Assembly: GCA_963676915.2 (NCBI GenBank)
Contig: CAXXVK010000013.1
Coordinates: forward strand, 30,609 to 94,608
Direction: 5' to 3'
Length of the DNA stretch: 64,000 bases
Source of the DNA: Myxococcota bacterium
GTDB taxonomy: Bacteria > Myxococcota_A > SURF-8 > G963663525
The notes under the pieces are model-generated. The model was not told where the DNA came from. It saw nothing but the letters and a program-made list of their open reading frames with translations, and ran no database searches. The translations under genes were made by a program, and so were the position numbers. This document shows, one piece after another, positions 4,870 to 21,187 of the stretch; positions within the stretch are counted from its first letter, which is position 1; each line of letters opens with the position of its first letter.

Positions 4870-5948
4870 TCATTCTTCACATCGACTTGCCAAGGTTCTA
4901 AAAAGTCTTTCTATCGACGTCACGGCCTCGGAAGAACCTTCTCCTAAATAAGTAGAATCCAGACGTTCATCAATCCAGAGACAGTTGAACTTGGAATAAT
5001 AATATCCTTCATAGCCATCAGGATCATCTTGAAGGTAAATGGATCCGCCTTGCTCGTTATCGCAGGTCTCTTTGGATTCGTAACAGGTGCTTCGGTACAT
5101 TTTGCTTCCAAGGTCATCCGTCCAGGTTTCAAGCTGCTTCTCCGTCAATGTTCCGCTGCAATTCACGGCGTTCGATGCGTCGAATCCCTCGTCATACTCA
5201 CGCAGGAGAGACCAGGAGCCTTCTTGGTTGATCGTAAGACGCTGGGTAAGGCCGATAGATTTGTCATAGTAGTAGTAATCTATTGCCGTATCGTTGGCTA
5301 CAGGAGGATCGGCTTCGCACGAGTGCGGAAGTGGTGCTCTCAAGGCATCGAATTCATCTTTTAAAAAATTCATTAAAGCGCATCGGTGGGAGAAGTAGAC
5401 AAAATCATCGTTAGTGCTTAGGTAGTACGTTCCTCCGTCACCGTCATAGCAGGTATGTAATCCGAAATGTCCGCAGAAATGATCTGTCGATGGAATGTTT
5501 TCGTCTACAATATCAAGGATGCTATTGAATTGTTCTTCGGTCATTTGGCCTGCATATCGTATGGATTCCAAAAGCTGATTTGCTCTCGAATTTTTATCTT
5601 CCTTGTATATCAGCTTGTAACTATAGTCTTCTTCGACAAACAGCACTGCACGCCGATCATACATACCTTCGAAAGCCGATTGACCTGCTGTCGAGTAGTT
5701 GTAATAAAAGAGGGTTTCTTCCGGGTAGGCGTCTTCGGTTGGGCAATCGGAAGATTCGAAGTTGCTGATATCCCAATCCTCTATGTCACTATCCGCCGAA
5801 GGGTTGGAGTTATCTGAATCGCTGGAATCATCCGAATCGCCTTCGTTTGTAGATACCCGCCTTCGTCTTCATCGACGCAAGAGAAAAGACCGCATGCCAA
5901 AACCAACGCGAGGAGGATAAAAACCGGATAGTGCGTTTTGCTTTTCAT
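4870..5948 (-). pseudogene. Tandem lipoprotein paralog 2 (frame-disrupted, more divergent)
   Basis: Same signal peptide and domain order as copies 1 and 3. There is a single frame break at 5846-5848 (T3 here vs T4 at the equivalent site of copy 1). The rest is open to TLASRCEE*. Confidence 0.75.
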
Positions 5949-6005
5949 GATTGGTTCCTGTTCGTTTGACGTTTTGCTCTCAAAGGGTGGAGAGGTCGAT
6001 AGCGA

Positions 6006-7235
6006 TTATTGTTCACATTCGCTCGCCAAAGTTTCGATCAATCCTTCGAGCAATGTCACGGCTTCGGAAGAACCATTTACCCAAGAATCTCCGATATAGT
6101 AATTTCCTCCGGCATTGATATCTGCCAATCGGTTATCACTCCAGAGGCAATTGAACTTGGAATAAAAATATTCGAAAGGGTAGCCTTGCATGTAAATGAA
6201 TCCCCCCTGCTTGTTATCGCAGTTCTCTTTTGATTCAAAACAGGTGCTTCGGTACATTTTGCTTTCGAGCTGATTTGTCCAGTCTGAAAGTTGCGTATCG
6301 GTCAGTGTGCCGGTACAATTCACGGCGTTCGATGCGTCGAACCCTTCGGAATACTCCCGCAGGAGAGACCAAGAGCCTTCGTTGGTAACCGTAAACCGTT
6401 GGGTAAGGCCGATCGTTTTGTCAAAGTAGCTGTAATCGATGGCTGTTCCATCAGCTATTGGAGTGTCGATTTCGCACGAGTGAGGAAGTGGCGCTCTCAA
6501 GGCGTCGATTTCGTCTTTTAAATAATTCATATAAGTGCATCGGTGGGTGAAGTGGACAAAATCATCGTCGGTGTTTATGTAGTATGTTCCTCCATCGCCA
6601 TCATAGCAGGCTGTATAATCCCATCCAAAATGTCCGCACAAATGATCTGTCGATGGAATGTATTTGACTGCAGCGTCAAGGATGCCGTTGAATTGTTCTT
6701 CGGTCATTTTACCTGCGTATCGGATTGATTCGGAGCCTGGATCTACTCTCCCATATCTATCTTCTTTGTAAACCAGTTCGTAGCTGTAATCTTTTTCGAT
6801 CAACAGCATGGCATGTCGATCACGCATACCTTCGAAGGCCGCTTGACCTTGAGTCCAATAATCGTAATACAGCAGAAATTCCTCCGGGTAGGCGTCTTCG
6901 GTTGGGCAGTTGGAAGGCTTGAAATCGTTGATGTCCCACTCTTCAGCATCCTCGTCTGACGGATCGCTATCCGAAAGATCATGGTCGGGTACATCCGCAT
7001 CACTGTCTGTACTGTCTAGTTCCTCCGTATCCCCTCCATCAAGGGATTCGTCTATCTCTTCCCGTTCTTCCGCATCGCTTCCATCAAGAGGTTCGTCCAG
7101 TTCGGCCTGTTCTTCCGAATCGCCTTCGTTTTGAGGGAGATGGCCGCCGCTGTCTTCATCGACGCAAGAGAAAAGACCGCATGCCAAAACCAACGCGAGG
7201 AGGATAAAAACCGGATAGTGCGTTTTGCTTTTCAT
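6006..7235 (-). CDS. Tandem lipoprotein paralog 3 (intact), secreted Cys-containing protein of unknown function
   Basis: 409-aa ORF with signal peptide and LVLAC lipobox-like site and a long Asp/Glu-rich linker. Conserved Cys motifs are DHLCGHFGWDYTACYDGDGG, HRC, HSCE, NCTG and STCFESKENC. No family recognised. Confidence 0.8.
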   Translation of the reverse strand: MKSKTHYPVFILLALVLACGLFSCVDEDSGGHLPQNEGDSEEQAELDEPLDGSDAEEREEIDESLDGGDTEELDSTDSDADVPDHDLSDSDPSDEDAEEWDINDFKPSNCPTEDAYPEEFLLYYDYWTQGQAAFEGMRDRHAMLLIEKDYSYELVYKEDRYGRVDPGSESIRYAGKMTEEQFNGILDAAVKYIPSTDHLCGHFGWDYTACYDGDGGTYYINTDDDFVHFTHRCTYMNYLKDEIDALRAPLPHSCEIDTPIADGTAIDYSYFDKTIGLTQRFTVTNEGSWSLLREYSEGFDASNAVNCTGTLTDTQLSDWTNQLESKMYRSTCFESKENCDNKQGGFIYMQGYPFEYFYSKFNCLWSDNRLADINAGGNYYIGDSWVNGSSEAVTLLEGLIETLASECEQ

Positions 7236-7340
7236 GACTTGTTTCCTGTCATTTCAGGGGGACGGTGATTTCCGGATGAAGGTTTTTTGTGCGTCAAATC
7301 ACTCAAACGTTATTCAAGAAGTAACATGATATGTCTATCT

Positions 7341-7409
7341 CGTCTATTTTAGACGAACTCGGATGTTCCTTTTCCAGCTTTCTCTCAAATAATTACGATA
7401 TACGTGGTC
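7341..7409. repeat. 69-bp intergenic repeat, copy 1 (core GTTCCTTTTCCAGCTTTCTCTCAAATAA)
   Basis: Aligns without gaps to 7861-7929, roughly four-fifths identical by eye, with a nearly perfect 30-nt core. It sits upstream of paralog 3 on the minus strand. Confidence 0.65.
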
Positions 7410-7418
7410 TTTTGATGA

Positions 7419-7437
7419 AGCAGGATGCAATCCTGCT
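7419..7437. repeat. Second copy of the AGCAGGAT-GCA-ATCCTGCT hairpin
   Basis: Same sequence as 3699-3717. It lies 21 nt below the stop of the 7458-7670 gene and ~180 nt above the start of paralog 3. Confidence 0.7.
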
Positions 7438-7457
7438 CTATTGAGAGTACGAAATGG

Positions 7458-7670
7458 TCATTTCAGTTTTTTCGTAAGGAATACCCAAACGGCGATCAGA
7501 CCACAGGAAACGAGAGTCACGATGAGGGGGTCGGTGCTGGCATAGAGGGCACCCATCATCAGGACGCTGAAAAAGAAATGAAACAGCTTTTTTTGGCGCC
7601 AGCCGTATATCATGATACCCGAGGCGATAAGGCCGAAAAACGTGGATACATAAAGATATTCCGGAGTCAT
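7458..7670 (-). CDS. Small hydrophobic membrane protein (about 70 aa, 2-3 TM segments)
   Basis: MTPEYLYVSTFFGLIASGIMIYGW..LMMGALYASTDPLIVTLVSCGLIAVWVFL is strongly hydrophobic, and AAAGGGA lies upstream of the internal ATG. The longer ORF to 7751 is less likely. Confidence 0.5.
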   Translation of the reverse strand: MTPEYLYVSTFFGLIASGIMIYGWRQKKLFHFFFSVLMMGALYASTDPLIVTLVSCGLIAVWVFLTKKLK

Positions 7671-7860
7671 GCTAGAAGTCCCTTTGGGATTTGTTTCAAA
7701 ATCAACGGTACTCTTATAAACGTGAAAATCAACGGTTTTATTCCAGGTCACGAAAGACGAGGTCGTCTAGGAGAGGAGGACGACTCGTATTTGTCTCGAT
7801 GGGGTAGGAATGTATCCTGCTTTATCTTCGAATGTCGCTTTGGCTATCAATTGTCTTGCT

Positions 7861-7929
7861 CGTCTGTTTTGTTTGACCTCGGAGGTTCCTTTTCCGGCTT
7901 TCTCTCAAATAAAAACTTTGTACGTGGCC
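7861..7929. repeat. 69-bp intergenic repeat, copy 2
   Basis: Matches 7341-7409. It lies between the divergent small membrane gene and tmk. Confidence 0.65.
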
Positions 7930-7984
7930 AAAACGTCGGGAATGCTGTATAACCGAAGAACTCTTGAAGCATCCGGGGTACGGC

Positions 7985-8635
7985 ATGAATCCGAAGCATG
8001 AAGGAAAGGCTCCTTTTTTCGTATTGGAAGGCATCGACGGCGCAGGGACGACCACCCACGCTCGGCGGCTGGTGGCGTTTTTGCAAATGCAGGGGTTGGA
8101 TTGTCTTCCCACCGCCGAACCGACAGACGGTCCCGTCGGGCGGCTGATCCGAGAATATCTGGCGGGAAAACATACCGAGGATTCCGGCGAGGCGGTAGGG
8201 CTGGACCCTACGGTCATGACGCTGCTTTTCTGTGCCGACCGCGCCGAGCACCTCTCTCGTCGCGTGCTTCCCGCTTTGCATAGTGGAACGGCGGTGGTGT
8301 CGGATCGCTACTATTATTCGACCGTCTGTTACCAGTCTGTGGGTTGTGACGCGGATTGGGTGCGCCAAACCGCCGCCCATGCACCGCGTCCCGATCTGAC
8401 TCTGCTGCTCGATGTCGAACCGAAAACGGGACTCGAACGGGTGGGGGGACGTGGAAACCCGATGGAAGCCTACGAAAAACTCGATTTTCTCGAGCGAGTA
8501 CGGGAGAACTATCTTACAATGTTTGCCGACGCTCCCGAGGTGCGGGTGCTCGATGCCGGACGACCGCTTGAAGAGGTCGCCGCCGAGATCCGTCAACAGG
8601 TCGAATCCTGGCTGAAAGAGGCGAAACGTGAGTGA
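7985..8635 (+). CDS. tmk: Thymidylate (dTMP) kinase
   Basis: P-loop FFVLEGIDGAGTTT, TAEPTDGPVG and DRYYYSTVCYQ motifs. Start is ATG at 7985, or the upstream TTG at 7964. Confidence 0.9.
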   Translation: MNPKHEGKAPFFVLEGIDGAGTTTHARRLVAFLQMQGLDCLPTAEPTDGPVGRLIREYLAGKHTEDSGEAVGLDPTVMTLLFCADRAEHLSRRVLPALHSGTAVVSDRYYYSTVCYQSVGCDADWVRQTAAHAPRPDLTLLLDVEPKTGLERVGGRGNPMEAYEKLDFLERVRENYLTMFADAPEVRVLDAGRPLEEVAAEIRQQVESWLKEAKRE

Positions 8636-10793
8636 ACGAAGGGAATATCTGGAGGCCGCAGCGCGTGAAAGCGCCGAAGCTCTGATGGGTCTGCGCCTGA
8701 GTACGGTCAAAGGCGATTTTGGCAGCCGCGAGCATTATCGGGCGGTTCGTCAGGACGTGCTGGCCGCGTTGACCCATCGGCTGGGTCTGGTCGATGGTTT
8801 TTTACCGGGACCGCTTAAAGACGTAGCCGACATGTGGCCCGAGGATCTCACGTCCGACGAAGTACGCCTGATTCACGAAATCCTGCTCGATCTCGTGCCG
8901 AAACTGGGCGATCCTTCGCAGTTGCAGCAGAACTCGGTCGAGCGCAAAGGGTTCGGGGCGTATTTCACACCGAAAGAGGTGGCCCGAGAGTTGGCCGAAT
9001 GGGCTTTGGAACCGCTGCTGGAGCGATTCGAGAGGGCGGAAGCCTCTGAGCCATACGAAAAATTATGTAAGGATTTCAAGGTGTTCGATCCCTCGATGGG
9101 AACCGGTATGCTGCTCGATGCCGCTCGGGAAACCATCGTGGACCGAATGACGGAAATCCGCGAACTCGACGCAAACGACCCACTGCGAGACGAACTTCGT
9201 AACCTCGTTCATCGAGATGTTCTCCATGGAGTGGATTTGGATGCCGCCGCCGTGCAGACAACGCGACTGGCGCTACGTTTGCGGCCCGGTAAACCTTCCC
9301 TGAGCGATCCGGGTGTTCATTTCTGGGTGGCCGATGCTCTGCGCGACCTCGTGCCGATGAGCGGCGAGTTGCTCGAAACGGCCAAAGCTCGGGATGAGCG
9401 ACGAGGTACGTTTCAGGCGGTGTTGCTCAATCCTCCTTATCTTCCCTGGTGGGTGATTCGAGAACGTCGTCCCGAACTGCTTCGACGCCGTTTCGGACCG
9501 ATGGAATTTCACGCCAGACCGTCCCATAAGGACGCCCATCCCAACGCTTACCTGTTTCACCTGGTTCTTGCGCTCGAATTGCTGGCTCCAGGTGGGAGGC
9601 TTGCGGCGATCGTACCCCAGGAATGGCGTGAAGAGTCCAAAGCGGCACCGTTTCGCGATTACCTCGAAGCGGCTTGTCGTTCGATCAAGCTGCATGTTTT
9701 TGCAGGAGACGCTCAGTTGTTTTCCGCCATGGGTGGACCGGTGGGAACCAACTCGCTGCTGTTGTTCGCAGAGCGAGGCGAGGGACCGGCGAAGGTTACG
9801 GTGGTTCGTCAACAAGGCGAAACCCAGCAAGCCACGCAGGAAAGTCTTGGTGGAAAAGACGACGCTTTTTCGGACTTTTTCGATCTTTTGCCCGAAGAAG
9901 TCGTTCCCCTGCGCGATGGTTTGGCTTTTGCCGTCGGTGGCGGGCATCAGCCGCCGGTGGATGAACTGCCGGACTTCACGTTCTCACGCGAGGAGTTGGG
10001 ACCGATTTCGGAGGACGAACTGTCGTTTTTGTATCCTGCGCTCTCGGATGCGAAAAACATCCGCCGGTACCGTATCGAACCTTCGGAGCGTTTTTGGGCT
10101 ATTCTCAATCCGTTGGGAAATTTCGATTACGCTCGGGAAAAAGCACCGAAGCTGCTCGATGCCATTGCCGCGAGGAAAAATATCTCGGGTCAGGAGGACG
10201 GGGAATGGTGGAAGTTCCCCAACGTAAGGCGGGTTGACGAGGTGTTGAGCCGTCAACCGAAGTTGCTTACGCCTCGTACGGCGGAACACAATTCGTTCGC
10301 ACTGGATGAAAACAAAGGGTATCAGATCAAAGGAACGAACTCCTGGATTCGTCCACGAGGGCGGCATTCGGTGTATTTTCTGCTTGCCGTGTTGAATTCT
10401 TCGGTGTTGGACGAAGCAGGGAACTTGCTGGGGCGCAGTTATCACGGGGGAGGACATCGCCTTTTCACGCCTGCCGAGTTGGGTGTTTTTCCGATTCGCG
10501 ATATCGATTTTCCCGAAACCGCACAAGAAAACGATTTACGGACGAAACTCTGGAAAAAGTGGAAGATACCTCTCGGACAGGGAAAATCCATTGGCGTGCG
10601 GCGGGAAATTCACCGATTGTGCATGGAAACCAATCCGCCATGCGGTTCTTTGGCTGCCGTACATGACGTGTTGGAATTTTTGGCCCGACAGCTCGTCAAA
10701 GCCTATCGGCTCGACGATCCACCGGAACAATTGGTGGATTTTTGCGAATCACTGATCGATGACATTGTTCGTAGTTTGTACCGAGTTCGATAA
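8628..10793 (+). CDS. Gamma-class N6-adenine DNA methyltransferase with TaqI_C-like target-recognition domain (no cognate endonuclease seen)
   Basis: Motif X GAYFTPKEVA, motif I VFDPSMGTGMLL, motif IV LLNPPYL, and a C-terminal YFLLAVLNSSVLD region. The GTG start overlaps the tmk stop (GTGAGTGA). Confidence 0.8.
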   Translation: MSERREYLEAAARESAEALMGLRLSTVKGDFGSREHYRAVRQDVLAALTHRLGLVDGFLPGPLKDVADMWPEDLTSDEVRLIHEILLDLVPKLGDPSQLQQNSVERKGFGAYFTPKEVARELAEWALEPLLERFERAEASEPYEKLCKDFKVFDPSMGTGMLLDAARETIVDRMTEIRELDANDPLRDELRNLVHRDVLHGVDLDAAAVQTTRLALRLRPGKPSLSDPGVHFWVADALRDLVPMSGELLETAKARDERRGTFQAVLLNPPYLPWWVIRERRPELLRRRFGPMEFHARPSHKDAHPNAYLFHLVLALELLAPGGRLAAIVPQEWREESKAAPFRDYLEAACRSIKLHVFAGDAQLFSAMGGPVGTNSLLLFAERGEGPAKVTVVRQQGETQQATQESLGGKDDAFSDFFDLLPEEVVPLRDGLAFAVGGGHQPPVDELPDFTFSREELGPISEDELSFLYPALSDAKNIRRYRIEPSERFWAILNPLGNFDYAREKAPKLLDAIAARKNISGQEDGEWWKFPNVRRVDEVLSRQPKLLTPRTAEHNSFALDENKGYQIKGTNSWIRPRGRHSVYFLLAVLNSSVLDEAGNLLGRSYHGGGHRLFTPAELGVFPIRDIDFPETAQENDLRTKLWKKWKIPLGQGKSIGVRREIHRLCMETNPPCGSLAAVHDVLEFLARQLVKAYRLDDPPEQLVDFCESLIDDIVRSLYRVR

Positions 10794-10854
10794 AGTAAGG
10801 AAATTCGCTTTTGAAATGTCGTATTTAGGGTGACTTTCGGAGGTGTAGCAAAAC

Positions 10855-10883
10855 TTGACCCTTCGAGAACATCCAACTACAAT
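10855..10883 (+). promoter_or_regulatory. Sigma70-like promoter TTGACC-17 nt-TACAAT
   Basis: -35 at 10855-10860, 17-nt spacer, -10 at 10878-10883, ~100 nt upstream of the J-domain gene. Confidence 0.5.
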
Positions 10884-10980
10884 GTTCACGGACCACAATG
10901 TTTTCTAACGTATACATTCCCTGGAGAATGGGTGGCTTGGGGGAAAAGCTTCTCACGATGACAGGAGTTTGGGTGATACT

Positions 10981-12219
10981 ATGAACGTAATGATTACCGA
11001 AGAGACGCAATTGGAGATTCGCGGCGGGATACAACTGGACAAGCGTAAGCTGTCCCCGCAAGAAGGCTTTTTGCTCTCGCGAATCAAGGGGCCGACAACC
11101 GTCAAAGAGCTGTACCGGATCAGCATGGTCGATCAGGATGCGACCGCGACGATCATCAAGCGCCTTGTGGACAACGGTATTTTGCAAAGTGTCGGGGGAA
11201 ATGCCGCTCAAGGACCGGGTGGTGTAGGACGGCGGGGAGCGCCGAAAAAAGACGAATACAACGGGTTCATTTTCGACCTTCAGTTGATGCAGGAAGATGT
11301 GGATCTGACCGTCGATCAGCGCAAAGACATCATTTTCACGCACCAGAATATGGAAGGAAAAACTTTTTTCCAGGTTCTAGGCGTACCCTACGATGCCGGT
11401 GCAGCACGGGTGAAAAAGGCATTTTTAAGCAAAAGCAAAAAATACCATCCCGACCGCTTTTTCCGCCGTCGTCTGGGTAGTTTCGAGCGGATGATCAACG
11501 AAATTTATTCTTCGCTCAGTCGCGCACAGTTCACGTTGCTGGACCCTGTCAAAAAGCGTGAATACCTCAAAAAACTGGAAAAAGAGGGTAAGCTTACCAA
11601 TTCCGATCATTTGGAAAACCTTGAAAAAGAAGAACGTGCTCGCCAGCAGAGGATTCGTGATGCGCTGAAAAACCGTCGACTGAAGCGAAATCCGTTGATG
11701 GAGAGAGTTAAAAAGGCCAAAGAATATTACGAAGCCGGTCGTATGGCGGTCGAGAGGGAAAACTACCTCGCCGCGTTGAACAATTTCCGGTTAGCTTCGT
11801 CGTTTGACCCGCACAATGAAATCTATCGTGCCAAGGTGGACGAGGTTATCGATCGCGCCAACCTGGAGCGTGCCCGCAAGATGTTGCAAAAAGCCCAGAT
11901 GGGACAAACTTACAATAGGGACGATTTTCTCGACCAATACGAAGAAGCGGCAGATCTGGGACAGAAGGATCATTCGATCCAGTTTGCAGCCGCCCAGGCG
12001 TTTCTGGAAAACGAAATGCCTGCCAAAGCTCGTACGTATCTGCGAAGGGCCGTGAAACTGGCTCCGAAAAACATCGACTACAAGATGATTCTCGGAACCT
12101 TGCTGTTGCGTACTAAAAAACGGCAGGATGCGGTTGAACTGTTTGAGGAAGTTCTCAAACTAAAACCGGGTCACGATCGGGCCAAAGAGTTGCTGAAAGA
12201 AGCGAAGAAATGGTTCTAG
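10981..12219 (+). CDS. J-domain (DnaJ-like) co-chaperone with C-terminal TPR repeats
   Basis: J domain FFQVLGVPYDAGAARVKKAFLSKSKKYHPDR (HPD motif). The C-terminus has TPR-like repeats (YYEAGRMAVERENYLAALNNFRLA, LRRAVKLAPKNIDY). Confidence 0.8.
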   Translation: MNVMITEETQLEIRGGIQLDKRKLSPQEGFLLSRIKGPTTVKELYRISMVDQDATATIIKRLVDNGILQSVGGNAAQGPGGVGRRGAPKKDEYNGFIFDLQLMQEDVDLTVDQRKDIIFTHQNMEGKTFFQVLGVPYDAGAARVKKAFLSKSKKYHPDRFFRRRLGSFERMINEIYSSLSRAQFTLLDPVKKREYLKKLEKEGKLTNSDHLENLEKEERARQQRIRDALKNRRLKRNPLMERVKKAKEYYEAGRMAVERENYLAALNNFRLASSFDPHNEIYRAKVDEVIDRANLERARKMLQKAQMGQTYNRDDFLDQYEEAADLGQKDHSIQFAAAQAFLENEMPAKARTYLRRAVKLAPKNIDYKMILGTLLLRTKKRQDAVELFEEVLKLKPGHDRAKELLKEAKKWF

Positions 12220-12421
12220 AGGTGCAACGAAAACGCCCGAACGGTTTTTTCATTGCCATGAAGCCTCCAAATGTAGTAAATCATTGCAGAAATGAATGTT
12301 TCGAATCGATAGAGATACCGTGAACATTCGTGGATTCGATCATTTTACGAAAAGATCTGTATTTTCACCCGGTTACAGTAAGTAGACATCAATCGGGTAG
12401 CCTTGGTTTTGTGGGGTAGGC

Positions 12422-14308
12422 ATGAGTCCAGTTATCGGTATTGATCTGGGAACCACCAATTCTTGTGTGGCATACATCGAAGATGGTGTGCCCATCGTGA
12501 TTCCCAATAAAGGGGGCTACAAAGTTACGCCTTCCGTGGTGGCGGTAACTCCGGCCAACAAGCGTCTCGTCGGACAACCGGCGAAACGGCAGGCCATCAC
12601 CAACCCCACCAATACAGTTTTCGCCATCAAACGTCTGACGGGTCGCATCTGGGGATCTCCCCTTGTGGAAGCTGCCCGGATTTCCAGTCCTTTCGACCTC
12701 GTGGAAGGTCAGAATCACGACGTGCGCGTCAAGATGATGGAGAAGGTTTACTCGGTTCCCGAAATCCAGGCGATGATTCTTTCCGAATTGCGTCAGGTTG
12801 CCGAAGACCACATCGGCGAGCCGGTCAACCAGGTTGTCATTACCGTCCCAGCCTACTTCAAGGACGCTCAACGACAAAGCACCAAAGATGCCGGTAAAAT
12901 CGCCGGGTTGGACGTGCTGCGCATCATCAATGAACCCACAGCGGCAGCGCTTGCCTATGGATATGGAAAGAGACTGAACAAAAAAGTCGCCATTTACGAT
13001 CTTGGCGGCGGTACCTTCGATATTTCGATTCTTGAAATTCACGATGGTGTGTTCGAAGTTCTTACCTCCAATGGTGATACTTTCCTTGGTGGCGAAGATT
13101 TCGATGCCCGTATTGTTGACTGGTTGCTGGATGAGCTGGAAGAAGCTCATGGCATCGATCTGCGCGGCGACAAAATGGCCACGCAACGTCTTAAAGATGC
13201 TGCTGAAACCGCAAAGATTGCGTTGTCCAGCTCCGAACAAACCGACATCAATCTTCCCTTCCTGGCTTCGACTCCCGAAGGAGAAGCGCTGCACCTCGAA
13301 CGCAAGCTTTTGCGTTCGGAATATGAAGAAATGGTCGAGGATCTGGTGTCTCGCACCGTGGATATCTGCGACCGTGCCTTGCAGGACATCAAGCTGAAAA
13401 AGCGCCAGATCGATGAATTGATTCTCGTCGGTGGCCAGACGCGAATGCCTTTGGTGTTCAACTCGGTCAAAGGCTTTTTCGGACGCGGACCCCTCAAGTC
13501 GCTCAATCCCGACGAAGCTGTTGCGCTTGGAGCAGCCATTCAGGCCAACATGCTCGTAGGGCAGGGGCCGATGGAGGACGAAACTACCCCATCGAAAAAG
13601 GTTCAGCAGCCTCGCAGCAATGCACTTTTGCTGGATTTGACGCCACACTCTTTGGGAATCGAAATCAGCGGTGGATACTACAAGGAAATCGTTCCGAAGG
13701 ATTCGCCGATTCCAATCAGCCGACACCACATTTTCACCACGGAACGCGACAATCAGGAAGAGGTTGACATCATCGTGGTGCAAGGTGAAGAAGTTTCCGA
13801 TGGTTCCGGCGAGAAAGGAAAAGTCCACAACTTCAACGTGCTGGGCGAATTCCGACTGACGAATATCAAAAAAGCGCCGCGTGGTGAAACCAAGATCAAG
13901 GTGTTTTTCGATATCGACGCCAACGGAACCGTCACCGTCTCGGCGATGGACATGGATACCGGCGATGAGCAGTCGATTATCGTCAATGCCGACTCCTATC
14001 TCTCCGATGGCGAAATTACCCAGATGATCGAGGACAACCGGGCGCACCTTTTGCAACGTGAACAGGAAGAAGCTCACAAACGGGCGGTGCACAACGTTCG
14101 TCAGAATCTCAAGTATATTCGAAGCGTTTTGCCTGCCGTGCGACCTCATATGGAGAGCACATCCTCTCGTCGCCGCGCCTTGGAGCAGATCGAGTACATG
14201 ATGTCCCGCGCTGACGAAGCTCTGGCCAATCAGGACACTTCGGTCCTGCTGGAACTCGAAGATTTTCTGGAAAAAACCAAAAACATCCTTCGCAAAGCAC
14301 AGAAGTAA
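12422..14308 (+). CDS. Hsp70-family chaperone (DnaK paralog)
   Basis: GIDLGTTNSCVA, VAIYDLGGGTFDIS and ILVGGQTRMP ATPase motifs plus a substrate-binding domain; 628 aa. Confidence 0.9.
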   Translation: MSPVIGIDLGTTNSCVAYIEDGVPIVIPNKGGYKVTPSVVAVTPANKRLVGQPAKRQAITNPTNTVFAIKRLTGRIWGSPLVEAARISSPFDLVEGQNHDVRVKMMEKVYSVPEIQAMILSELRQVAEDHIGEPVNQVVITVPAYFKDAQRQSTKDAGKIAGLDVLRIINEPTAAALAYGYGKRLNKKVAIYDLGGGTFDISILEIHDGVFEVLTSNGDTFLGGEDFDARIVDWLLDELEEAHGIDLRGDKMATQRLKDAAETAKIALSSSEQTDINLPFLASTPEGEALHLERKLLRSEYEEMVEDLVSRTVDICDRALQDIKLKKRQIDELILVGGQTRMPLVFNSVKGFFGRGPLKSLNPDEAVALGAAIQANMLVGQGPMEDETTPSKKVQQPRSNALLLDLTPHSLGIEISGGYYKEIVPKDSPIPISRHHIFTTERDNQEEVDIIVVQGEEVSDGSGEKGKVHNFNVLGEFRLTNIKKAPRGETKIKVFFDIDANGTVTVSAMDMDTGDEQSIIVNADSYLSDGEITQMIEDNRAHLLQREQEEAHKRAVHNVRQNLKYIRSVLPAVRPHMESTSSRRRALEQIEYMMSRADEALANQDTSVLLELEDFLEKTKNILRKAQK

Positions 14309-14320
14309 GAGGCGTGAACC

Positions 14321-15529
14321 TTGGTTGAGCTTGACAACCTGGTGAAAGCGAACCACCTGACGCCGGATCAGGCCGAAGCAGCGCAGAACGCAAGCCCTAA
14401 AAATCCTCGTTTCGCTTTTCTGTGGATTTTACGGCAAGGCTGGATGCAAGAAGATGTTCTTCGCGAACATTTTGCACAATGCACCGGTCGTTCGAGTCTT
14501 TCACTGGAGGAAATCCGACGAATCCATCCCTCTTTGCGCGAAGTGCTGCCGCCGGATTTGATCGTGCATTTTCGCGTGCTACCGTTGGATCTCATCAAAT
14601 CCAAACTGACGCTTGCGCTTTCGGTGCCGCTATCGGAGGAAGCCGTAGAGGATTTGGAGTTTTTTACTGGTTATACGATCGAGCAGATCGTGGTGAAGGA
14701 TTCCGAGTTGGTTCGTGCCATCGAATTTCATTTCGCCTTGCGTCTTGAATCGTTTGTGCGAACGGTCAAAGATATCGCGGAGTTGTCTCAAGAACAACAG
14801 ATCGAGACAGAAGACAAAGCCTCGACGCAAGAACCGGAAGTTGCCTCCACTTCGGATACTCCGAACCCCGAGGACACCGCTGGATTCCAGAATGAAGATT
14901 TCAGCGATCTCCAACGACAGATTTCGGATTTGACGATGGAATCGGGTCAATCGGCGGTGGTGTCGGTGGATTCGATGGAAATTCCGGAGGTCGAAGACGG
15001 CGAGGAAGACGAATACGAGGAATACGAGGAAGAATTCCTGCTGCCGACGGAAGAGTTGGGCGTTCAACTGGCCGAAGCGGAAAATCGCGGGGAAGTCATC
15101 GAGATTTCGATGGACTGGCTGTTGAGGTTTTTCGAGGACTCCCTATTCTGCTCGATCAAGCAAACGGTATTGGGTGGATATATTGGCAAAGGAAAGAACC
15201 TCGATAAGGAGATGGCCAAAAAGATTCAGGTCGATTTCGGTGGAGACGATGCTTTGCAGGAATTGATCGAGAATCGTACCTCGCTGATGAGCGAATCTCC
15301 AAGCCCGAAACTCGCCGAAGTGGCGGTGTTGGCCGGATATCCCGGAACGACTCCTTTGGCTGTCCTGCCTATCGAACTCAAAGGCCGCGTGATCGGGCTG
15401 TTTTTCGGCCTGTCTCCCCTGGAAGAGGATCTTACCGACGACGAGGAAGAATGGGCCGAGGTCGCCGAGCAAATCGCCGCTGCCATCGAAGTTCAAATTC
15501 TTGCACAGAAAATCGGGGTGGGGTCGTAG
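14321..15529 (+). CDS. T2SSE_N (GspE/MshE N-terminal)-domain protein with acidic linker and GAF-like C-terminal domain
   Basis: LPPDLIVHFRVLPLDLIKSKLTLALSVPLSEEAVEDLEFFTGYTIEQIVV fits the GspE_N fold signature. Two MshEN-like helices precede it. A Glu/Asp-rich linker follows, and the C-terminal LAVLPIELKGRVIGLFFG is GAF-like. TTG start 12 nt after the hsp70 stop, with AAGAGG upstream. Confidence 0.55.
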   Translation: MVELDNLVKANHLTPDQAEAAQNASPKNPRFAFLWILRQGWMQEDVLREHFAQCTGRSSLSLEEIRRIHPSLREVLPPDLIVHFRVLPLDLIKSKLTLALSVPLSEEAVEDLEFFTGYTIEQIVVKDSELVRAIEFHFALRLESFVRTVKDIAELSQEQQIETEDKASTQEPEVASTSDTPNPEDTAGFQNEDFSDLQRQISDLTMESGQSAVVSVDSMEIPEVEDGEEDEYEEYEEEFLLPTEELGVQLAEAENRGEVIEISMDWLLRFFEDSLFCSIKQTVLGGYIGKGKNLDKEMAKKIQVDFGGDDALQELIENRTSLMSESPSPKLAEVAVLAGYPGTTPLAVLPIELKGRVIGLFFGLSPLEEDLTDDEEEWAEVAEQIAAAIEVQILAQKIGVGS

Positions 15530-15628
15530 TAGAAAACTCCTTTCGTTTTCCACCCTATCCCATCATTGCCGATTCGTAACGTTTTCGGGTAGACTGGAGC
15601 GGTTTGAATCGACAAGGAGGATTTTTGC

Positions 15629-17533
15629 GTGGAGCGGCATTCCCCGATATTCGATACCCTCGAAGCGGTTCGGCGTGTACGACCGTATGCGTTCAGCGAT
15701 TTTTACCGTCGTGGACGACCGGTGCGCCGCACTCCGGAGCCTTCTCCACCTCAAGTATCGTTTCTGCTGCTCCAACGCTGTTCTTTGGGGTGTCGGTTCT
15801 GCTTTGCAGGGTCCGCATTGAAAAGGGGAGGGGAGGTGTCGTTTGCGCGTCTCAAGCCTTTGTTCGATGCCTGCCGTAACGTTCCCCGCGCCGTGATGCT
15901 GGGGGGAGAACCTTTCGAACATACCGAAATTCTTGAGATTTTAGACTATGCGATGCAATGCTTCTCGCAAGAAGTTGAAGTCTATACCAACACGGCGCAT
16001 CTGCCCGATACATTGGACGAACTAAACACCTTCTTGGAAAACCTGGGGGATGGTCAACGCAAACCTCGTCTCGTATTGACCATGGCGCTTGACCGTTATC
16101 ATGCCGAACGCCTGGGAGAAAAACGCTGCCGGGAGCGTGTGCGTCAGTGGTTGGAATTGCGGGAAAAGTACGGTCGCAAGGTGCGTTTCAATCTTACCGA
16201 CGAAGCATTTCAAAGTGAAACTTACCTGTCTCGATTCGCCGTACGAGATGTGCTTGCCGAATTTTCGCCGGAATTGGCCGATTTCTTTTTCTCGCTCGAC
16301 GATGCAAAGGACATCGAAGAGACGTTTTATTTCAATCCGGTGCAACGCCAGGGACGGCGAAAAGCCGCCGACGGTGACTCCGTACCGCTTCGGTTAAGCG
16401 AGATCGCTCGAGGCGGGGATTTGGTGATTGGTCCCGATCTCGGGGACACTTCCGAAACTCCCCCGTTGGCGCTGTTCGATTCTCTCAATTCCGCGTGGGC
16501 CTCGCCGCCACCGGCTTTCAGTCGAGTGGCGCGATTGGAAGGGGAGGGGGCGAAGGATCTGGCGATTGCCGTACGAACGGCCTTTCAGGAAAGGGCGTTT
16601 TTTACGTCAATCGATCAACCTGAATCGGGTGAGGATCAAGTACAAGCCATAGATTTTACGAGAGAATGCCTTGCTTCCATGCGTCTTGCGGCCTCTGATT
16701 CCGCTACTTTGTGGTGCCGTATGGCCGAGCGACTGTTTCGTGTGGCTTGTGATGTTGGGGAACTGACGCCGGAGGCGGCGTCCTGGACTGAAACCCAGCC
16801 GTTGCCTTTGCCTGTTTTGCATGAATTTACGGCATTGTTTATGAAAAACCATCCCGATACCGTGTCGGAATGGATTGCATCGTTTGTCAATGAACGTCTG
16901 GAAGAAACGGGAAGTGGAACCGAACCCTTGGCTCCGGTGCTGGAGACTCAATGGCTCGATCTTGAGGCGATGATTCCTTCTGAAACGCCGATTCGTTTGC
17001 CGATGCGTCACATCTGTATCGATACCGGGTTGGGATATTTTCCCGGTGAAAGCAGCCATCCGTTGCGTGTCGAAGCCTATGTCTTACCTGAACACCGGAT
17101 TCAGTGGCGTTTTCCGGGATTTCGTTCTGCTCGCGAAGGGGAGAGCGCTGCCGGAGACGGTCGCTTGTGGCTACGTTTCTGGAGACTGGTGGTAGGTGAA
17201 GCGTTTTGGCGTGTCGTGGTTCCTGTGTGGCGAGATGCGTTGGTTGATCGATATGGTAAGGAAAATCCAGCGTTGGTGTCGTGGCTCGACGAACTGGCTT
17301 TGGAAGAGGTGCCGGGAGAGGGACTGTACCGGCAATCGAGCCGCGATTCCGGCAGAATGTTTCGCTTGTTGGCTTTCGAACCTCGGCGAGGGGGCATTGA
17401 CTGGATGAACGTCGATCTCCTGCGTGCGCTGCTGAACGATCCTGGCGAAGGATGGGACGCCGACAAACTGGCATTGTTTCTCGACGGTTTGCGGGCGGCT
17501 CTGGATCGGGCCGAACGGAGGAAACAGGCATGA
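15629..17533 (+). CDS. Radical SAM protein with long uncharacterised C-terminal extension
   Basis: CSLGCRFC (CX3CX2C) near residue 51 and the VMLGGEPF GGE motif. About 380 C-terminal residues have no recognisable motif. AAGGAGG lies upstream of the GTG start. Confidence 0.7.
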   Translation: MERHSPIFDTLEAVRRVRPYAFSDFYRRGRPVRRTPEPSPPQVSFLLLQRCSLGCRFCFAGSALKRGGEVSFARLKPLFDACRNVPRAVMLGGEPFEHTEILEILDYAMQCFSQEVEVYTNTAHLPDTLDELNTFLENLGDGQRKPRLVLTMALDRYHAERLGEKRCRERVRQWLELREKYGRKVRFNLTDEAFQSETYLSRFAVRDVLAEFSPELADFFFSLDDAKDIEETFYFNPVQRQGRRKAADGDSVPLRLSEIARGGDLVIGPDLGDTSETPPLALFDSLNSAWASPPPAFSRVARLEGEGAKDLAIAVRTAFQERAFFTSIDQPESGEDQVQAIDFTRECLASMRLAASDSATLWCRMAERLFRVACDVGELTPEAASWTETQPLPLPVLHEFTALFMKNHPDTVSEWIASFVNERLEETGSGTEPLAPVLETQWLDLEAMIPSETPIRLPMRHICIDTGLGYFPGESSHPLRVEAYVLPEHRIQWRFPGFRSAREGESAAGDGRLWLRFWRLVVGEAFWRVVVPVWRDALVDRYGKENPALVSWLDELALEEVPGEGLYRQSSRDSGRMFRLLAFEPRRGGIDWMNVDLLRALLNDPGEGWDADKLALFLDGLRAALDRAERRKQA

Positions 17534-19695
17534 ATCTTCCGAAAATCCGCATTGCAACGGGAGGATGCTCGAATGCTCTGTGTGCCGTTTGCACTCAGCG
17601 GGGGCGAGTGGCTCCCCGACCTGTAAAAGATATTCTGGCCGAAATCGAAAGCGCCGCCGACAATGGTGCGAAGGATATTTACTTCGACGATCACGAGCCG
17701 CTTTCCCATCCTGAAATCAAAGCGATAGTAGCGGCTTGTGTGCGTTATCGGTTGCGTTTTATTCTTGCTGCGAGTGGACGTGTGCCGCTTGTGCCGAGAA
17801 CGCTGGATAATCTTCGAAAACTCGGTTTGAAAGCAGTAGTTTTTCGTTTAGCAGGATTTCACCCGGAGGTGGGGCAACTCGTCTGGGGTGATCGGCGCGT
17901 GGGAGAACATGCCGAAAGTGCGTTGCGGACAATTCTCGATAGCGGGTTGCCTTGTGAAGTGGAATGTCCGGTAACTCCCGACAATCGTGGGACGCTCGAC
18001 CGCAGTCTTCTTGAGCTGGAACGGTGTTTCGGCCTTAAGGGAAGGCTTGTGGACTTTGACGGACGTTTTACCGAAGACATCACCCGTGCGGAGAAGCGCG
18101 TGGCAATCCGGCGGGGTGAAAATACCCCGGTACGCACCACTTGCGTTCGTTTCCATCCCGTAAGGAGCGAGGAAACGTTCGAGCCTTCTCAGTGTCCCTA
18201 TCGTTCACGGGAAGATTCAGGTGAGTATGGTCCGAAATCTGCGTGGATAAGATTTCCCGATGGTTCTTGGAAGCGATTCGAAACCGATGAAGATGTTTCA
18301 CTTCATCTGACGGTGGCCAAAAATCTACGTGGTCGGATGCTGCTCCATGCGTCGGAGAGAACGTTGCCGGTAAGGCTCGACGACACTTGCAAAAGCTGCC
18401 CGCGCCTTGTGCGCTGCGGTGCGGCTTTTGTTCCCGACGATTCCCCGCACGAAATTTCCGACAAATCCGAGGAAGCTTGTTCGGCTCGTTTCGATGCGCT
18501 TCGAGAGGCTTTATCGAAGCATCCCGAGCGGCTGGAGGTCGCGGGAGCGTCTACGGTCTGTCATGCTGTGGAAGAAGGTGCGACGATTCCCGACATTGTG
18601 GAAGAAGCGTCGCTGGAAACCTGGGAAGTTGTCGATATCGCTCGCCAATATGGCTATGGTGTCGTGGATTACGACCTGGACCGCAACGTGTTCGATGGTT
18701 CCTGGCGGCTAGTACTTGGGGAAGATTCGCCCGCTTTGCAACGTGCTCCGGGGGCGCTGGCCGTGTTGCAGCTTTCTTCGGCTTGTGTCAACCGTTGCAT
18801 TATGTGCAGCCTGCCGCAGATGTTCCACGGACAATGGGTGTCCAGCGAACATTCCGTTCGTCTGCTCGAAGAACTTTACTTGTTGGGCTACGATACCTGC
18901 GACATTTTCGGCGGTGAAATAACCTTACGTAGCGATTTCGTCGAACTGCTGCGTTTCGCTAAGGAAATCGGCTTGCGGGCGACCTTCATCAGCTCGGGAT
19001 ACAACCTCGATCGTGCGCGTATCGATACTCTGGCCGAAGCTGGGGTGGACAAATGCACCCTCGCGTTGGATTCCCTCGATCCCGGACTTCACGATGCGAT
19101 CAAGAATCGGCCGGGCATCCACGAGCAAGCCATGCGTGCGATTCGTGCCGTGCTGGACAATGGCCGACTGCCTCTCGAAATCAACACCGTAGTGCTTACA
19201 CAGAATGTCTATGAACTTCCCGAACTTCACAAGGCGTTGGCGAAGATGGGTATCCGGCGTCATCGGCTGTTTTACTGCATCGATGGCCTGTTCGGGATGG
19301 GAGATCCACCCTATCTGACCTACGACCAGGCCTTGGATTTCATCCGGGAGGTGCATCCGAATCTGATGCGCTTGAGCCAAGAGAACGGAACCCTGATCGA
19401 CTGGTGTCCGCCGGTGGAGTTTTCACGACCCATCGAGGAAGAAGCGCGGAGGCTAAGTAAGGGAATTTACACGGATGATAGTGTATCCTGCACGGCTCCG
19501 GGAAAAGAAATCTACGTGATGGTGGATGGTTCGGTGTATCCCTGTGTCAACCCGACGATCTGGCGGCACGAGGCCGTAGGCAAAGTGGGGAGGGATCGAC
19601 TGATCGATATCGAACGCGGCTTCAAAATGCAGGAGTTTTGTCTAAAAGCCGGACATCTTCCCGCTTGTGCCAATTGCATTTCGAAACGAAGCTGA
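17530..19695 (+). CDS. Double radical-SAM-core protein with SPASM/twitch-like C-terminus
   Basis: The ATG overlaps the upstream stop (ATGA, 17530-17533). The N-terminal core is GGCSNALCAVC (CX4CX2C). There is a central CKSCPRLVRC. The second core is canonical, ACVNRCIMC plus FGGEITL. The tail is CTAPGKEIYVMVDGSVYPC ... CLKAGHLPACANC. Confidence 0.7.
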   Translation: MNLPKIRIATGGCSNALCAVCTQRGRVAPRPVKDILAEIESAADNGAKDIYFDDHEPLSHPEIKAIVAACVRYRLRFILAASGRVPLVPRTLDNLRKLGLKAVVFRLAGFHPEVGQLVWGDRRVGEHAESALRTILDSGLPCEVECPVTPDNRGTLDRSLLELERCFGLKGRLVDFDGRFTEDITRAEKRVAIRRGENTPVRTTCVRFHPVRSEETFEPSQCPYRSREDSGEYGPKSAWIRFPDGSWKRFETDEDVSLHLTVAKNLRGRMLLHASERTLPVRLDDTCKSCPRLVRCGAAFVPDDSPHEISDKSEEACSARFDALREALSKHPERLEVAGASTVCHAVEEGATIPDIVEEASLETWEVVDIARQYGYGVVDYDLDRNVFDGSWRLVLGEDSPALQRAPGALAVLQLSSACVNRCIMCSLPQMFHGQWVSSEHSVRLLEELYLLGYDTCDIFGGEITLRSDFVELLRFAKEIGLRATFISSGYNLDRARIDTLAEAGVDKCTLALDSLDPGLHDAIKNRPGIHEQAMRAIRAVLDNGRLPLEINTVVLTQNVYELPELHKALAKMGIRRHRLFYCIDGLFGMGDPPYLTYDQALDFIREVHPNLMRLSQENGTLIDWCPPVEFSRPIEEEARRLSKGIYTDDSVSCTAPGKEIYVMVDGSVYPCVNPTIWRHEAVGKVGRDRLIDIERGFKMQEFCLKAGHLPACANCISKRS

Positions 19696-19716
19696 TTACC
19701 GCGAAAAATCCCAGTG

Positions 19717-20418
19717 TCATTTTCCCGAAAAGCGATACGTTTGCCCGGCTTCGTCGAGGGTGAACGTTTCGCCTAACGGACTTTCCTGTTCCTCAGGATC
19801 GACCAGCCAGGCCCGAAGCGTGCGACCCACGGGAAGGTTTTCGCCGAGACAGGTAACCACGCTGTCACCTTCTGTTTCGGGTAGACAGGCGAAAGAGGGC
19901 AGCCGAAAGCCGGTTTCCACATCGTCGAAAGCCAACCTCCAGTCCGAGGCATTTTCCAAGGAAACTTCGGCTTGCCCGGTTTCGAGTGCTTCGACCACCA
20001 AAACCGCTTCGTGATTTTCACCCTCGGCGAGATCGATTTCCAACGGTTCGTCGGGGGCGTAGCTTTCGAGGCCGCCTTCGGTCATTCGAAACAGTATCGC
20101 CGTGACTTGTCGCGCCTTGCCAGCATCCACCGACAGCGATACGTCGAGTGTCTCTTCCGTGTCTTCTGCGGTTGTGGAAATCTGCGCTGTGGCTGCTTCC
20201 GTCATGTCGTCGGCATCAACCGATACCCAGAGCCTCGAAGCGTAATCCCACTGGGAGGTCGAAGTTTCTTCGGTGCCGCCCTCGAAACGTTTCAGAGAAG
20301 GAGTGTTTTCGGTTGTAATGACCACCGCGACACCCGCCGGTGCAGGTTGGCTGTCAATGAAACATCCTGGAATCACAAGAGAAAACAAAATCAACAGTAC
20401 GATGAATGAAGGTTTCAT
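19717..20418 (-). CDS. Lipoprotein, unknown function (last gene of the TPR/beta-barrel operon)
   Basis: Signal peptide MKPSFIVLLILFSLVIPGC with lipobox; 4-nt gap to the upstream gene. Confidence 0.7.
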   Translation of the reverse strand: MKPSFIVLLILFSLVIPGCFIDSQPAPAGVAVVITTENTPSLKRFEGGTEETSTSQWDYASRLWVSVDADDMTEAATAQISTTAEDTEETLDVSLSVDAGKARQVTAILFRMTEGGLESYAPDEPLEIDLAEGENHEAVLVVEALETGQAEVSLENASDWRLAFDDVETGFRLPSFACLPETEGDSVVTCLGENLPVGRTLRAWLVDPEEQESPLGETFTLDEAGQTYRFSGK

Positions 20419-20422
20419 GACG

Positions 20423-21187
20423 TTACCTCACCTCTACGCGGACGTGCAGACGTGCCTTGCCGCGTTCGATTTCCACGCCCCCGTTTTCACCGCCGACATC
20501 CCCCGCTTCCGAGCCTCCACCACCGGAGTCGAGACAGATTGACTCACCGCCTCCACCGCCGCTTTCCTTGCTATCACCGGAGCCGCTGGAGCCTTCACCG
20601 GAACCGGCGGTGTTCGAAACCGTGATGTCGGGGGGCGTTTCAAAGGCAAGGGGAGCCATCGCGGATGCAGGCATAAGGGAATCGGAAAACGCGATGGTTC
20701 GTGACGTATTTTCTACCGGTTCCCAGCCTGTTTCGCTGTGATACCAGCAGGTGGGAGTTTCTTCCGTGCGATATGTTTCACCATCTTTCGGGGTGAACGA
20801 GGAGTTTTTTTCAAGACAGATCGACGATTGAGTAGTAGTGCGTTCGATGCTTGCAACTCCCTGAAAATTCAAAGGAAGTTCTTGATCTTTTGTTCCTAGA
20901 ACTACGAGAACGGATTCCTCTGGGGCGGTTTGCAGGATCAGTTGCCCTTGGTTCAGATGAACGCCTTGTTTCAGGGCTATGTTGCTTTGCGCTTCCACGT
21001 CCACGATGGCACGACCCGGAAGCAGCAGACGGAGCCGGGAGTTTTTACCCGTGGAGACGTTTTGTACTTCCTCCGTGGGTTTGCAGGCTCTTTCGTCACA
21101 ATGGGTCGGTCCTTCCGACGCCGTAACTCTCCAGTTCGTCGAAGCTATCGTGCTGCACACGAAAAGGCTGAGAATCCAGGCTACCAT
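20423..21187 (-). CDS. Secreted protein with FecR-like segment and Gly/Ser-rich tail
   Basis: N-terminal hydrophobic signal. LLLPGRAIVDVEAQSNIALKQGVHLNQGQLIL resembles FecR-type domains. It overlaps the upstream gene by 7 nt. Confidence 0.55.
   Translation of the reverse strand: MVAWILSLFVCSTIASTNWRVTASEGPTHCDERACKPTEEVQNVSTGKNSRLRLLLPGRAIVDVEAQSNIALKQGVHLNQGQLILQTAPEESVLVVLGTKDQELPLNFQGVASIERTTTQSSICLEKNSSFTPKDGETYRTEETPTCWYHSETGWEPVENTSRTIAFSDSLMPASAMAPLAFETPPDITVSNTAGSGEGSSGSGDSKESGGGGGESICLDSGGGGSEAGDVGGENGGVEIERGKARLHVRVEVR

Follow-up and report, generated by a model that had tools for sequence, protein, structure and literature searches.

Radical S-adenosylmethionine (SAM) enzymes with several cores, and those that carry a C-terminal twitch domain, are both already known kinds. 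Among the former, FO synthase is made either as two polypeptides or as one fusion and generates two separate 5'-deoxyadenosyl radicals (PMC11917521). Among the latter, BlsE, a cytosylglucuronate decarboxylase, and BtrN, a 2-deoxy-scyllo-inosamine dehydrogenase, combine a canonical radical-SAM core with a C-terminal twitch-type domain; the auxiliary cluster of BtrN has four Cys ligands and is a proposed electron acceptor, and fully Cys-ligated auxiliary clusters have been proposed to accept electrons in two-electron oxidations (PMC9012708). In a 64,000-nucleotide stretch of a Myxococcota contig (CAXXVK010000013.1; the whole stretch is called the window below), two adjacent genes, g1 and g2, encode proteins that can be assigned to the radical-SAM superfamily and, for the C-terminal module (C-module) of g2, to its twitch subgroup, while no curated equivalog family tested includes them. 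What is new here is the constant build of the system, three barrels on two proteins with two four-Cys sites, found in a minority of Myxococcota, together with a decay series of one of its cores. We see an even chance that g1 and g2 form an obligate heteromeric enzyme, whose two intact cores would carry out two radical steps on one soluble core metabolite.

The gathering score of Pfam Radical_SAM (PF04055) is reached by g1, by the N-terminal half of g2 and by g2 as a whole. With a cut-off of 29.5 bits, g1 reaches 31.0; the N-terminal 406 residues of g2, scanned alone, score 41.7 bits (aa 10-152), and whole g2 scores 115.4 bits, a score driven by the C-module, with its best stretch at aa 415-565. 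An earlier reading made from the DNA letters only (the sequence-only reading) had given g2 two radical-SAM-type cores and a C-terminal Fe-S tail, which these scans bear out for both radical-SAM domains, and the cluster and GGE motifs that it quoted for the two genes were all found where it had put them. The combination of CX3CX2C and GGE is seen in the g1 core and in the g2 C-module, with CX4CX2C and DHE instead in the N-terminal core (N-core) of g2. A 12-sequence alignment of g1 shows no variation at C51 or across G92-G93-E94-P95, with C55 and C58 near-invariant, and both CX3CX2C and GGE of the g2 C-module are invariant in the family alignment. The g1 core and the g2 C-module are only distantly related to one another (hhalign probability 58%).

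AlphaFold2 (AF2) models built on 12-sequence alignments reached a predicted local distance difference test (pLDDT) score of 85.2 and a predicted template modelling (pTM) score of 0.86 for g1, and 86.4 and 0.88 for g2; no hydrophobic segment was found on scanning both sequences. In the PDB fold search with g2, BlsE came out best (E 3e-15, TMt 0.75), followed by SkfB, SuiB, DesII, PqqE, MoaA, anSME, viperin and BtrN, and BlsE also leads when the g2 family profile is compared with the sequences of solved structures (BlsE 1e-29, PqqE 3e-24, SkfB 1e-18). The same fold search with g1 gave only weak matches to the radical-SAM core (SpeY, EpeE/YydG and SkfB; E about 1e-4) and none at all outside it, and Pfam likewise returned nothing at E<=5 for the C-terminal ~330 residues of g1, a half of the protein that had already defied assignment by eye.

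A full SPASM domain has a seven-Cys motif, CX9-15GX4C...CX2CX5CX3C...C, and two auxiliary clusters. Pfam SPASM does match g2 at aa 654-716 (28.1 bits, cut-off 21.5), and the seven-Cys motif was not found in the tail by sequence or alignment. Since only C654 (in CTAPG), C672 (in YPC) and C713 and C716 (in CANC, aa 713-716) are conserved there, and since the protein stops 5 residues past the CX2C, we assign the tail to the BtrN-type twitch domains, with a predicted single auxiliary cluster, rather than to full SPASM. The family profile of the last 70 residues of g2 matches the twitch region of BtrN (residues 165-235/185-255, E 3e-9), and in the pairwise alignment each of the four Cys lies opposite a Cys ligand of BtrN. 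The tail had previously been described as SPASM/twitch-like; its Fe-S character stands, and so does twitch by the four BtrN-aligned Cys, but full SPASM has to be given up.

As a whole, g2 reads as a tandem duplication of a unit made of a radical-SAM barrel and an auxiliary-cluster domain. The central CxxCx5C that had been noticed in the sequence-only reading (CKSCPRLVRC, aa 287-296) is indeed present, in 21 of the 22 g2 homologues scanned, and it proves to be joined by C222 in a second near-invariant four-Cys site: in a 12-sequence alignment of g2, C296 is invariant and C222, C287 and C290 are conserved in at least 90%, and all four are invariant in an 11-sequence alignment of the N-terminal half. 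This would be a second, putative auxiliary-cluster site. The N-core in front of it had been called non-canonical; this holds for the window (CX4CX2C, significant in Pfam by itself), but across the family it is better described as a degenerating copy, canonical in some lineages and lost in many. A canonical CNNxCxxC, with GGE 40 residues on, is found at L035-L037, all of one family, and in several metagenomic representatives; genome G004 (locus L014) has the canonical triad without GGE; the window's clade, four members with identity down to 45%, has CX4CX2C with D/G-H-E; and the triad is missing from the remaining lineages. Because the three triad-bearing clades are set apart by triad-less ones on the tree of the C-module, the simplest history is that the N-core was canonical in the ancestor (CX3CX2C and GGE) and was then lost repeatedly, and evidently the triad is not needed for what the family mainly does. 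The repeated decay, together with the CX4CX2C without GGE seen here, makes a cluster-bearing scaffold or an electron relay the more likely role of the window's N-core, rather than a third SAM-cleaving site. Ratios of nonsynonymous to synonymous substitution rates (dN/dS), computed between the window and a 94%-identical metagenome contig, are 0.07 for the g1 core, 0.10 for the g2 C-module, 0.22 for the g1 C-terminal domain, 0.23 for the g2 N-core and 0.30 for the g2 middle domain; all regions of the pair are constrained, the two intact cores most strongly, and the window's N-core is under purifying selection.

At each of the 23 related loci examined, a g1 homologue lies next to a g2 homologue. 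Loci of the window's clade have the order g1-g2 and those of the other clade g2-g1, with adjacency kept, and start-stop overlaps occur in most class A loci. Moreover, the two genes form a single open reading frame (ORF) at L017 (1220-5377, genome G008; 1385 aa) and at L042 (7980-11999, a metagenome contig; 1339 aa); these fusions come from two independent assemblies and are sisters in the tree, and in their next relative, L016, the genes are unfused, with the g2 start 2 nt past the g1 stop. Constant adjacency, permuted order and fusion in two assemblies are the signature of an obligate complex, from which we infer that g1 and g2 probably act together. The chance that the two-core architecture of g2 is an assembly fusion of two genes, raised by the earlier reading as a way in which it could fail, is ruled out, since this architecture recurs in over 20 genomes and contigs that are independent of one another.

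Two further observations concern the history of the pair. The two f19 genomes are split in the tree, with G383 among f4 (g1-g2 order) and G083 beside f26 (g2-g1 order), a pattern suggesting that the pair has to some extent moved horizontally inside the phylum. At L014, directly 3' of the pair, lies a very divergent tandem paralogue of g2 (729 aa, radical-SAM domain at aa 435-590) without the N-core triad and without GGE, beside a further radical-SAM gene of 323 aa; these extra genes (5789-8953) are a local expansion of the g1-g2 system.

The family is small. A word-indexed search of 5.8 billion proteins returned only 5-6 clusters per protein, whose names go no further than 'MoaA/NifB/PqqE/SkfB family radical SAM enzyme' or simply read 'hypothetical', and a hidden Markov model scan of 1.84 billion representative proteins with a profile of the N-terminal half of g2 gave 19 matches at E<=1e-30. 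Many multi-domain matches had suggested a larger family with two radical-SAM domains; these were dismissed as generic, and only about 26 representatives (at the 50% identity level) carry the family-specific middle domain. Narrow back-translated pattern scans of genome and metagenome contigs gave 1 and 3 loci. Of the 10 genomes in the window's order (the window's own included), 7 carry full-length g2, and the same seven carry g1; g1 occurs in 22 of 401 genomes sampled across Myxococcota, spread over seven families. An eighth genome of the order, G009, holds only a 121-aa fragment of g1 (G009:C13:38255-38482), possibly through decay or assembly error, and at L039 (G230:C54:24282-25621) g1 is split over two frames, which could be a decaying copy or again an error of assembly.

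No NCBIfam equivalog cut-off is reached by g1 or g2. For g2 the scores and cut-offs in bits are 102.4 and 395 for TIGR04053, 91.2 and 381 for PqqE (TIGR02109), 80.3 and 500 for NirJ2 (TIGR04055), 79.9 and 400 for BlsE (TIGR04466), 79.3 and 500 for AhbD (TIGR04545) and 60.7 and 284 for MoaA (TIGR02666); viperin_w_prok, with a cut-off of 180 bits, gives 34.7 for g2 and 16.9 for g1. Models of CofG/CofH are absent among the 23 families matched by g1 and the best 25 of the 48 matched by g2 at E<=1, and the literature on tandem, dual or triple radical-SAM-domain systems yielded nothing that matches the g1-g2 family. Thus the profile searches that the earlier reading had proposed place neither protein in any curated characterised family.

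Compared with the described systems, the pair resembles FO synthase (CofG/CofH, or the fused FbiC) in having two radical-SAM cores, encoded by adjacent genes or by a fusion, with no peptide gene. FO synthase acts on metabolites and, unlike g2, has neither SPASM/twitch clusters nor a third, decayed barrel; the likeness is one of a presumed way of working, not of family membership. The g2 C-module is built like BlsE and BtrN, but g2 differs from both in an extra N-terminal radical-SAM-like module of 400 aa with its own four-Cys site, in its probable need for a radical-SAM partner and in standing outside any antibiotic gene cluster. The repeated loss of the N-core triad finds a parallel in TIGR04347, a radical-SAM/SPASM-like family labelled 'pseudo-SAM' by NCBI, whose proteins, to judge by that name, would lack SAM-cluster features; the window's g2 keeps a modified triad, and it scores 64.6 bits against the TIGR04347 cut-off of 525.

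The pair might instead be a peptide or protein maturase, comparable either to those of peptides that are made by ribosomes and modified after translation (RiPPs) or to anSME/QhpD, with its substrate gene elsewhere in the genome. We regard this as a serious rival, though a less likely reading than the metabolite enzyme. With the SPASM-type RiPP maturases (PqqE, SkfB, SuiB, AlbA) g2 shares a SPASM/twitch branch rich in peptide maturases, and all four, with PqqE, SkfB and SuiB among the best, appear high in its sequence and fold matches, as do EpeE/YydG and SkfB among the fold matches of g1, whose large, fast-evolving C-terminal domain could serve substrate docking. However, a precursor, a RiPP recognition element (RRE) or PqqD recognisable by Pfam, a peptidase and an exporter or other transporter were all looked for, and none was found in any of the 23 loci, which goes against the RiPP-type expectation first attached to these genes. 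When ORFs of at least 25-30 aa were compared all against all by BLAST, first among 10 loci and later among 20, no conserved third gene or small ORF emerged, only shadow ORFs inside g1 and g2 and generic response regulators, so that the absence of an adjacent substrate gene, at first noted for the window, extends to its relatives. One genus has an ORF rich in Arg upstream of g2, which was set aside as high-GC noise because its frame is not conserved, and the spacers flanking the pair at the four closest loci (21-212 nt) are too short to hold a precursor gene. Within the proteins themselves, PqqD/RRE had no Pfam match at E<=1 in full g1 and g2 and none at E<=5 in the N-terminal half of g2 and the C-terminal domain of g1. 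Further differences from RiPP maturases are the two-module architecture with a presumably obligate partner and the one predicted four-Cys twitch cluster, where such maturases typically have a two-cluster SPASM domain, and every NCBIfam maturase model stays far under its cut-off.

The genes upstream of the pair offered another explanation. The stretch 10969-15529 is a tight set encoding a J-domain/TPR protein, an Hsp70 and an MshEN and GAF-like (MshEN-GAF) protein, with which g1 and g2 could work, for instance by modifying the chaperone or one of its clients. The five genes do lie on one strand, with only 99 nt between the MshEN-GAF gene and g1 and no promoter-like or terminator-like site in that gap (counts below the shuffled expectation), and the same arrangement recurs in a congener genome and in the 94%-identical metagenome contig. 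At every locus outside the genus, however, the adjacency is missing, and homologues of the MshEN-GAF protein (27-32% identity) are found in the majority of the order's genomes independently of the pair, on other contigs or far from it, one of them in G007, which has no pair. The link to Hsp70 that the sequence-only reading had drawn from this proximity is therefore largely refuted by the comparative context, and we consider it very improbable. An action on nucleic acid, i.e. on a tRNA, rRNA or DNA base, or the making of a viperin-like antiviral modified nucleotide, is somewhat easier to imagine and still unlikely. Such substrates require no dedicated gene, viperin, MoaA and QueE-type enzymes are among the sequence and fold matches, and the window has genes for a DNA methylase and an AbiEi-like protein close by. 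On the other hand, viperin_w_prok stays far from its cut-off, and the weak PADLOC matches to pVip (g2 5.8e-12, g1 1.8e-7), which had raised a defence role, cover the generic radical-SAM core only. No RNA-binding domain of the TRAM/PUA type was detected in the Pfam scan of g1 and g2, and the flanks at other loci are no defence islands: a Pfam tally of 64 flanking ORFs found no enriched family, and the genes are mostly housekeeping ones, GlnRS, IMPDH, DnaA/DnaN, NADH dehydrogenase subunits and LepA among them.

We therefore favour a soluble metabolite over a neighbouring peptide as the substrate, because no gene for a substrate, RRE, peptidase or transporter was found, the settings are housekeeping ones, the predicted twitch cluster is single and relatives acting on sugars and nucleotides are prominent; many such enzymes stand among the closest solved relatives of the two proteins (BlsE, DesII, MoaA, viperin, BtrN, SpeY, AbmM). 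In the heteromeric enzyme that we propose, g1 would supply one intact SAM-cleaving [4Fe-4S] core, and the C-module of g2 a second one, backed by its BtrN-type four-Cys twitch cluster. The N-module of g2, as a duplicated radical-SAM-plus-auxiliary-cluster unit whose four-Cys site almost every member retains, would act chiefly as a scaffold or relay that bears a cluster. Each intact core would generate a 5'-deoxyadenosyl radical, and the two radicals would act successively or jointly on one substrate, following the logic of FO synthase, with the fully ligated auxiliary clusters taking up or passing on electrons, in the way suggested for two-electron oxidations of the BtrN type. The substrate, and here we speculate, would come from core metabolism and be a nucleotide, a nucleotide-sugar or a cofactor-like compound. 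Several points weigh against this proposal. The peptide maturases SkfB, SuiB, PqqE and EpeE/YydG also rank high in both the sequence and the fold searches, so that fold similarity fails to separate peptide from small-molecule substrates; SkfB is itself a twitch-type enzyme acting on a peptide, and protein-modifying radical-SAM enzymes with substrates encoded in trans are known. Moreover, the window's N-core may still be catalytic, since its Cys triad is kept across the clade to about 45% identity.

Going one step further, one might tentatively picture a Myxococcota-restricted three-barrel enzyme with up to five clusters, in which the two cores on different subunits couple or doubly oxidise a core metabolite. 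If this is true, the enzyme would make an as yet undescribed cofactor, lipid or nucleotide derivative peculiar to the lineage, and the family would capture, in living lineages, the stages by which a radical-SAM core becomes a non-catalytic cluster-bearing domain. Genome mining usually presumes that SPASM/twitch enzymes mature a neighbouring peptide. The g1-g2 family is a clean counter-example to this assumption, with rigid linkage, some fusion and no substrate gene beside the pair in 23 loci. Of the ~165,000 SPASM/twitch radical-SAM genes, most lack an assigned function (PMC9012708). The small size of the family relative to the proteins scanned and its well-defined parts make it an approachable system in which to look for a new radical reaction, and its third core, graded from canonical to lost, lets the roles of auxiliary clusters and of decayed radical-SAM cores be probed.

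Table 1. Features of the g1-g2 locus, in positions of the window
Feature	Position	Strand	Basis and remarks
Shine-Dalgarno-like AAGGAGG	15614..15620	+	8 nt ahead of the g1 GTG start; read from sequence
g1, divergent radical-SAM protein, 634 aa, GTG start	15629..17533	+	ORF; Pfam Radical_SAM 31.0 bits
g1 CX3CX2C motif CSLGCRFC, aa 51-58	15779..15802	+	GGE (aa 92-94) at 15902-15910
g1 C-terminal domain, ~aa 340-634, helical and beta-sheet, poorly conserved	16646..17530	+	no family or fold match
g2, 721 aa, two tandem modules of radical-SAM plus auxiliary cluster (predicted)	17530..19695	+	ORF, Pfam, AF2
g2 N-core CX4CX2C (CSNALCAVC, aa 13-21)	17566..17592	+	DDHE at 17686-17697 in the place of GGE
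g2 middle putative auxiliary site, C222 (18193-18195) and CX2CX5C (C287, C290, C296; 18388-18417)	18193..18417	+	alignment; cluster binding inferred
g2 C-module canonical CX3CX2C (CVNRCIMC, aa 419-426)	18784..18807	+	GGE (aa 461-463) at 18910-18918
g2 twitch-type auxiliary-cluster domain (predicted), aa 650-721; C654, C672, C713, C716	19477..19692	+	Pfam SPASM, BtrN alignment

At the junction of the two genes, the g2 ATG at 17530 overlaps the g1 TGA as ATGA, with GGAGG 8 nt before the g2 start. An alternative in-frame ATG is present at 17452, and the one at 17530 is favoured because the overlap start (ATGA or GTGA) is conserved in homologous loci, being kept in the window and at L001, L003, L014, L015, L018 and L032. 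The translational coupling proposed at the outset is supported. Likewise, the 99-nt gap ahead of g1 (15530-15628) has no credible ORF and the gene 3' of g2 (19717-20418) is convergent, both as the sequence-only reading had it, and an Rfam scan of 10700-20500 gave no RNA element, riboswitch or other, at E<=1.

Some neighbouring genes deserve mention in their own right. The window encodes, at 8628-10793, a 721-aa DNA methyltransferase of the Eco57I/N6_Mtase/TaqI_C type with no nuclease partner in view; in the congener it is conserved (76% identity) in the corresponding position, where it too follows thymidylate kinase. In genus g6, an Exo_endo_phos gene (L016 13843-14916, L017 82-1245) overlaps the g1 start and looks co-transcribed with it; this gene is missing from other lineages, and at L042 a 357-aa ORF occupies the same position.

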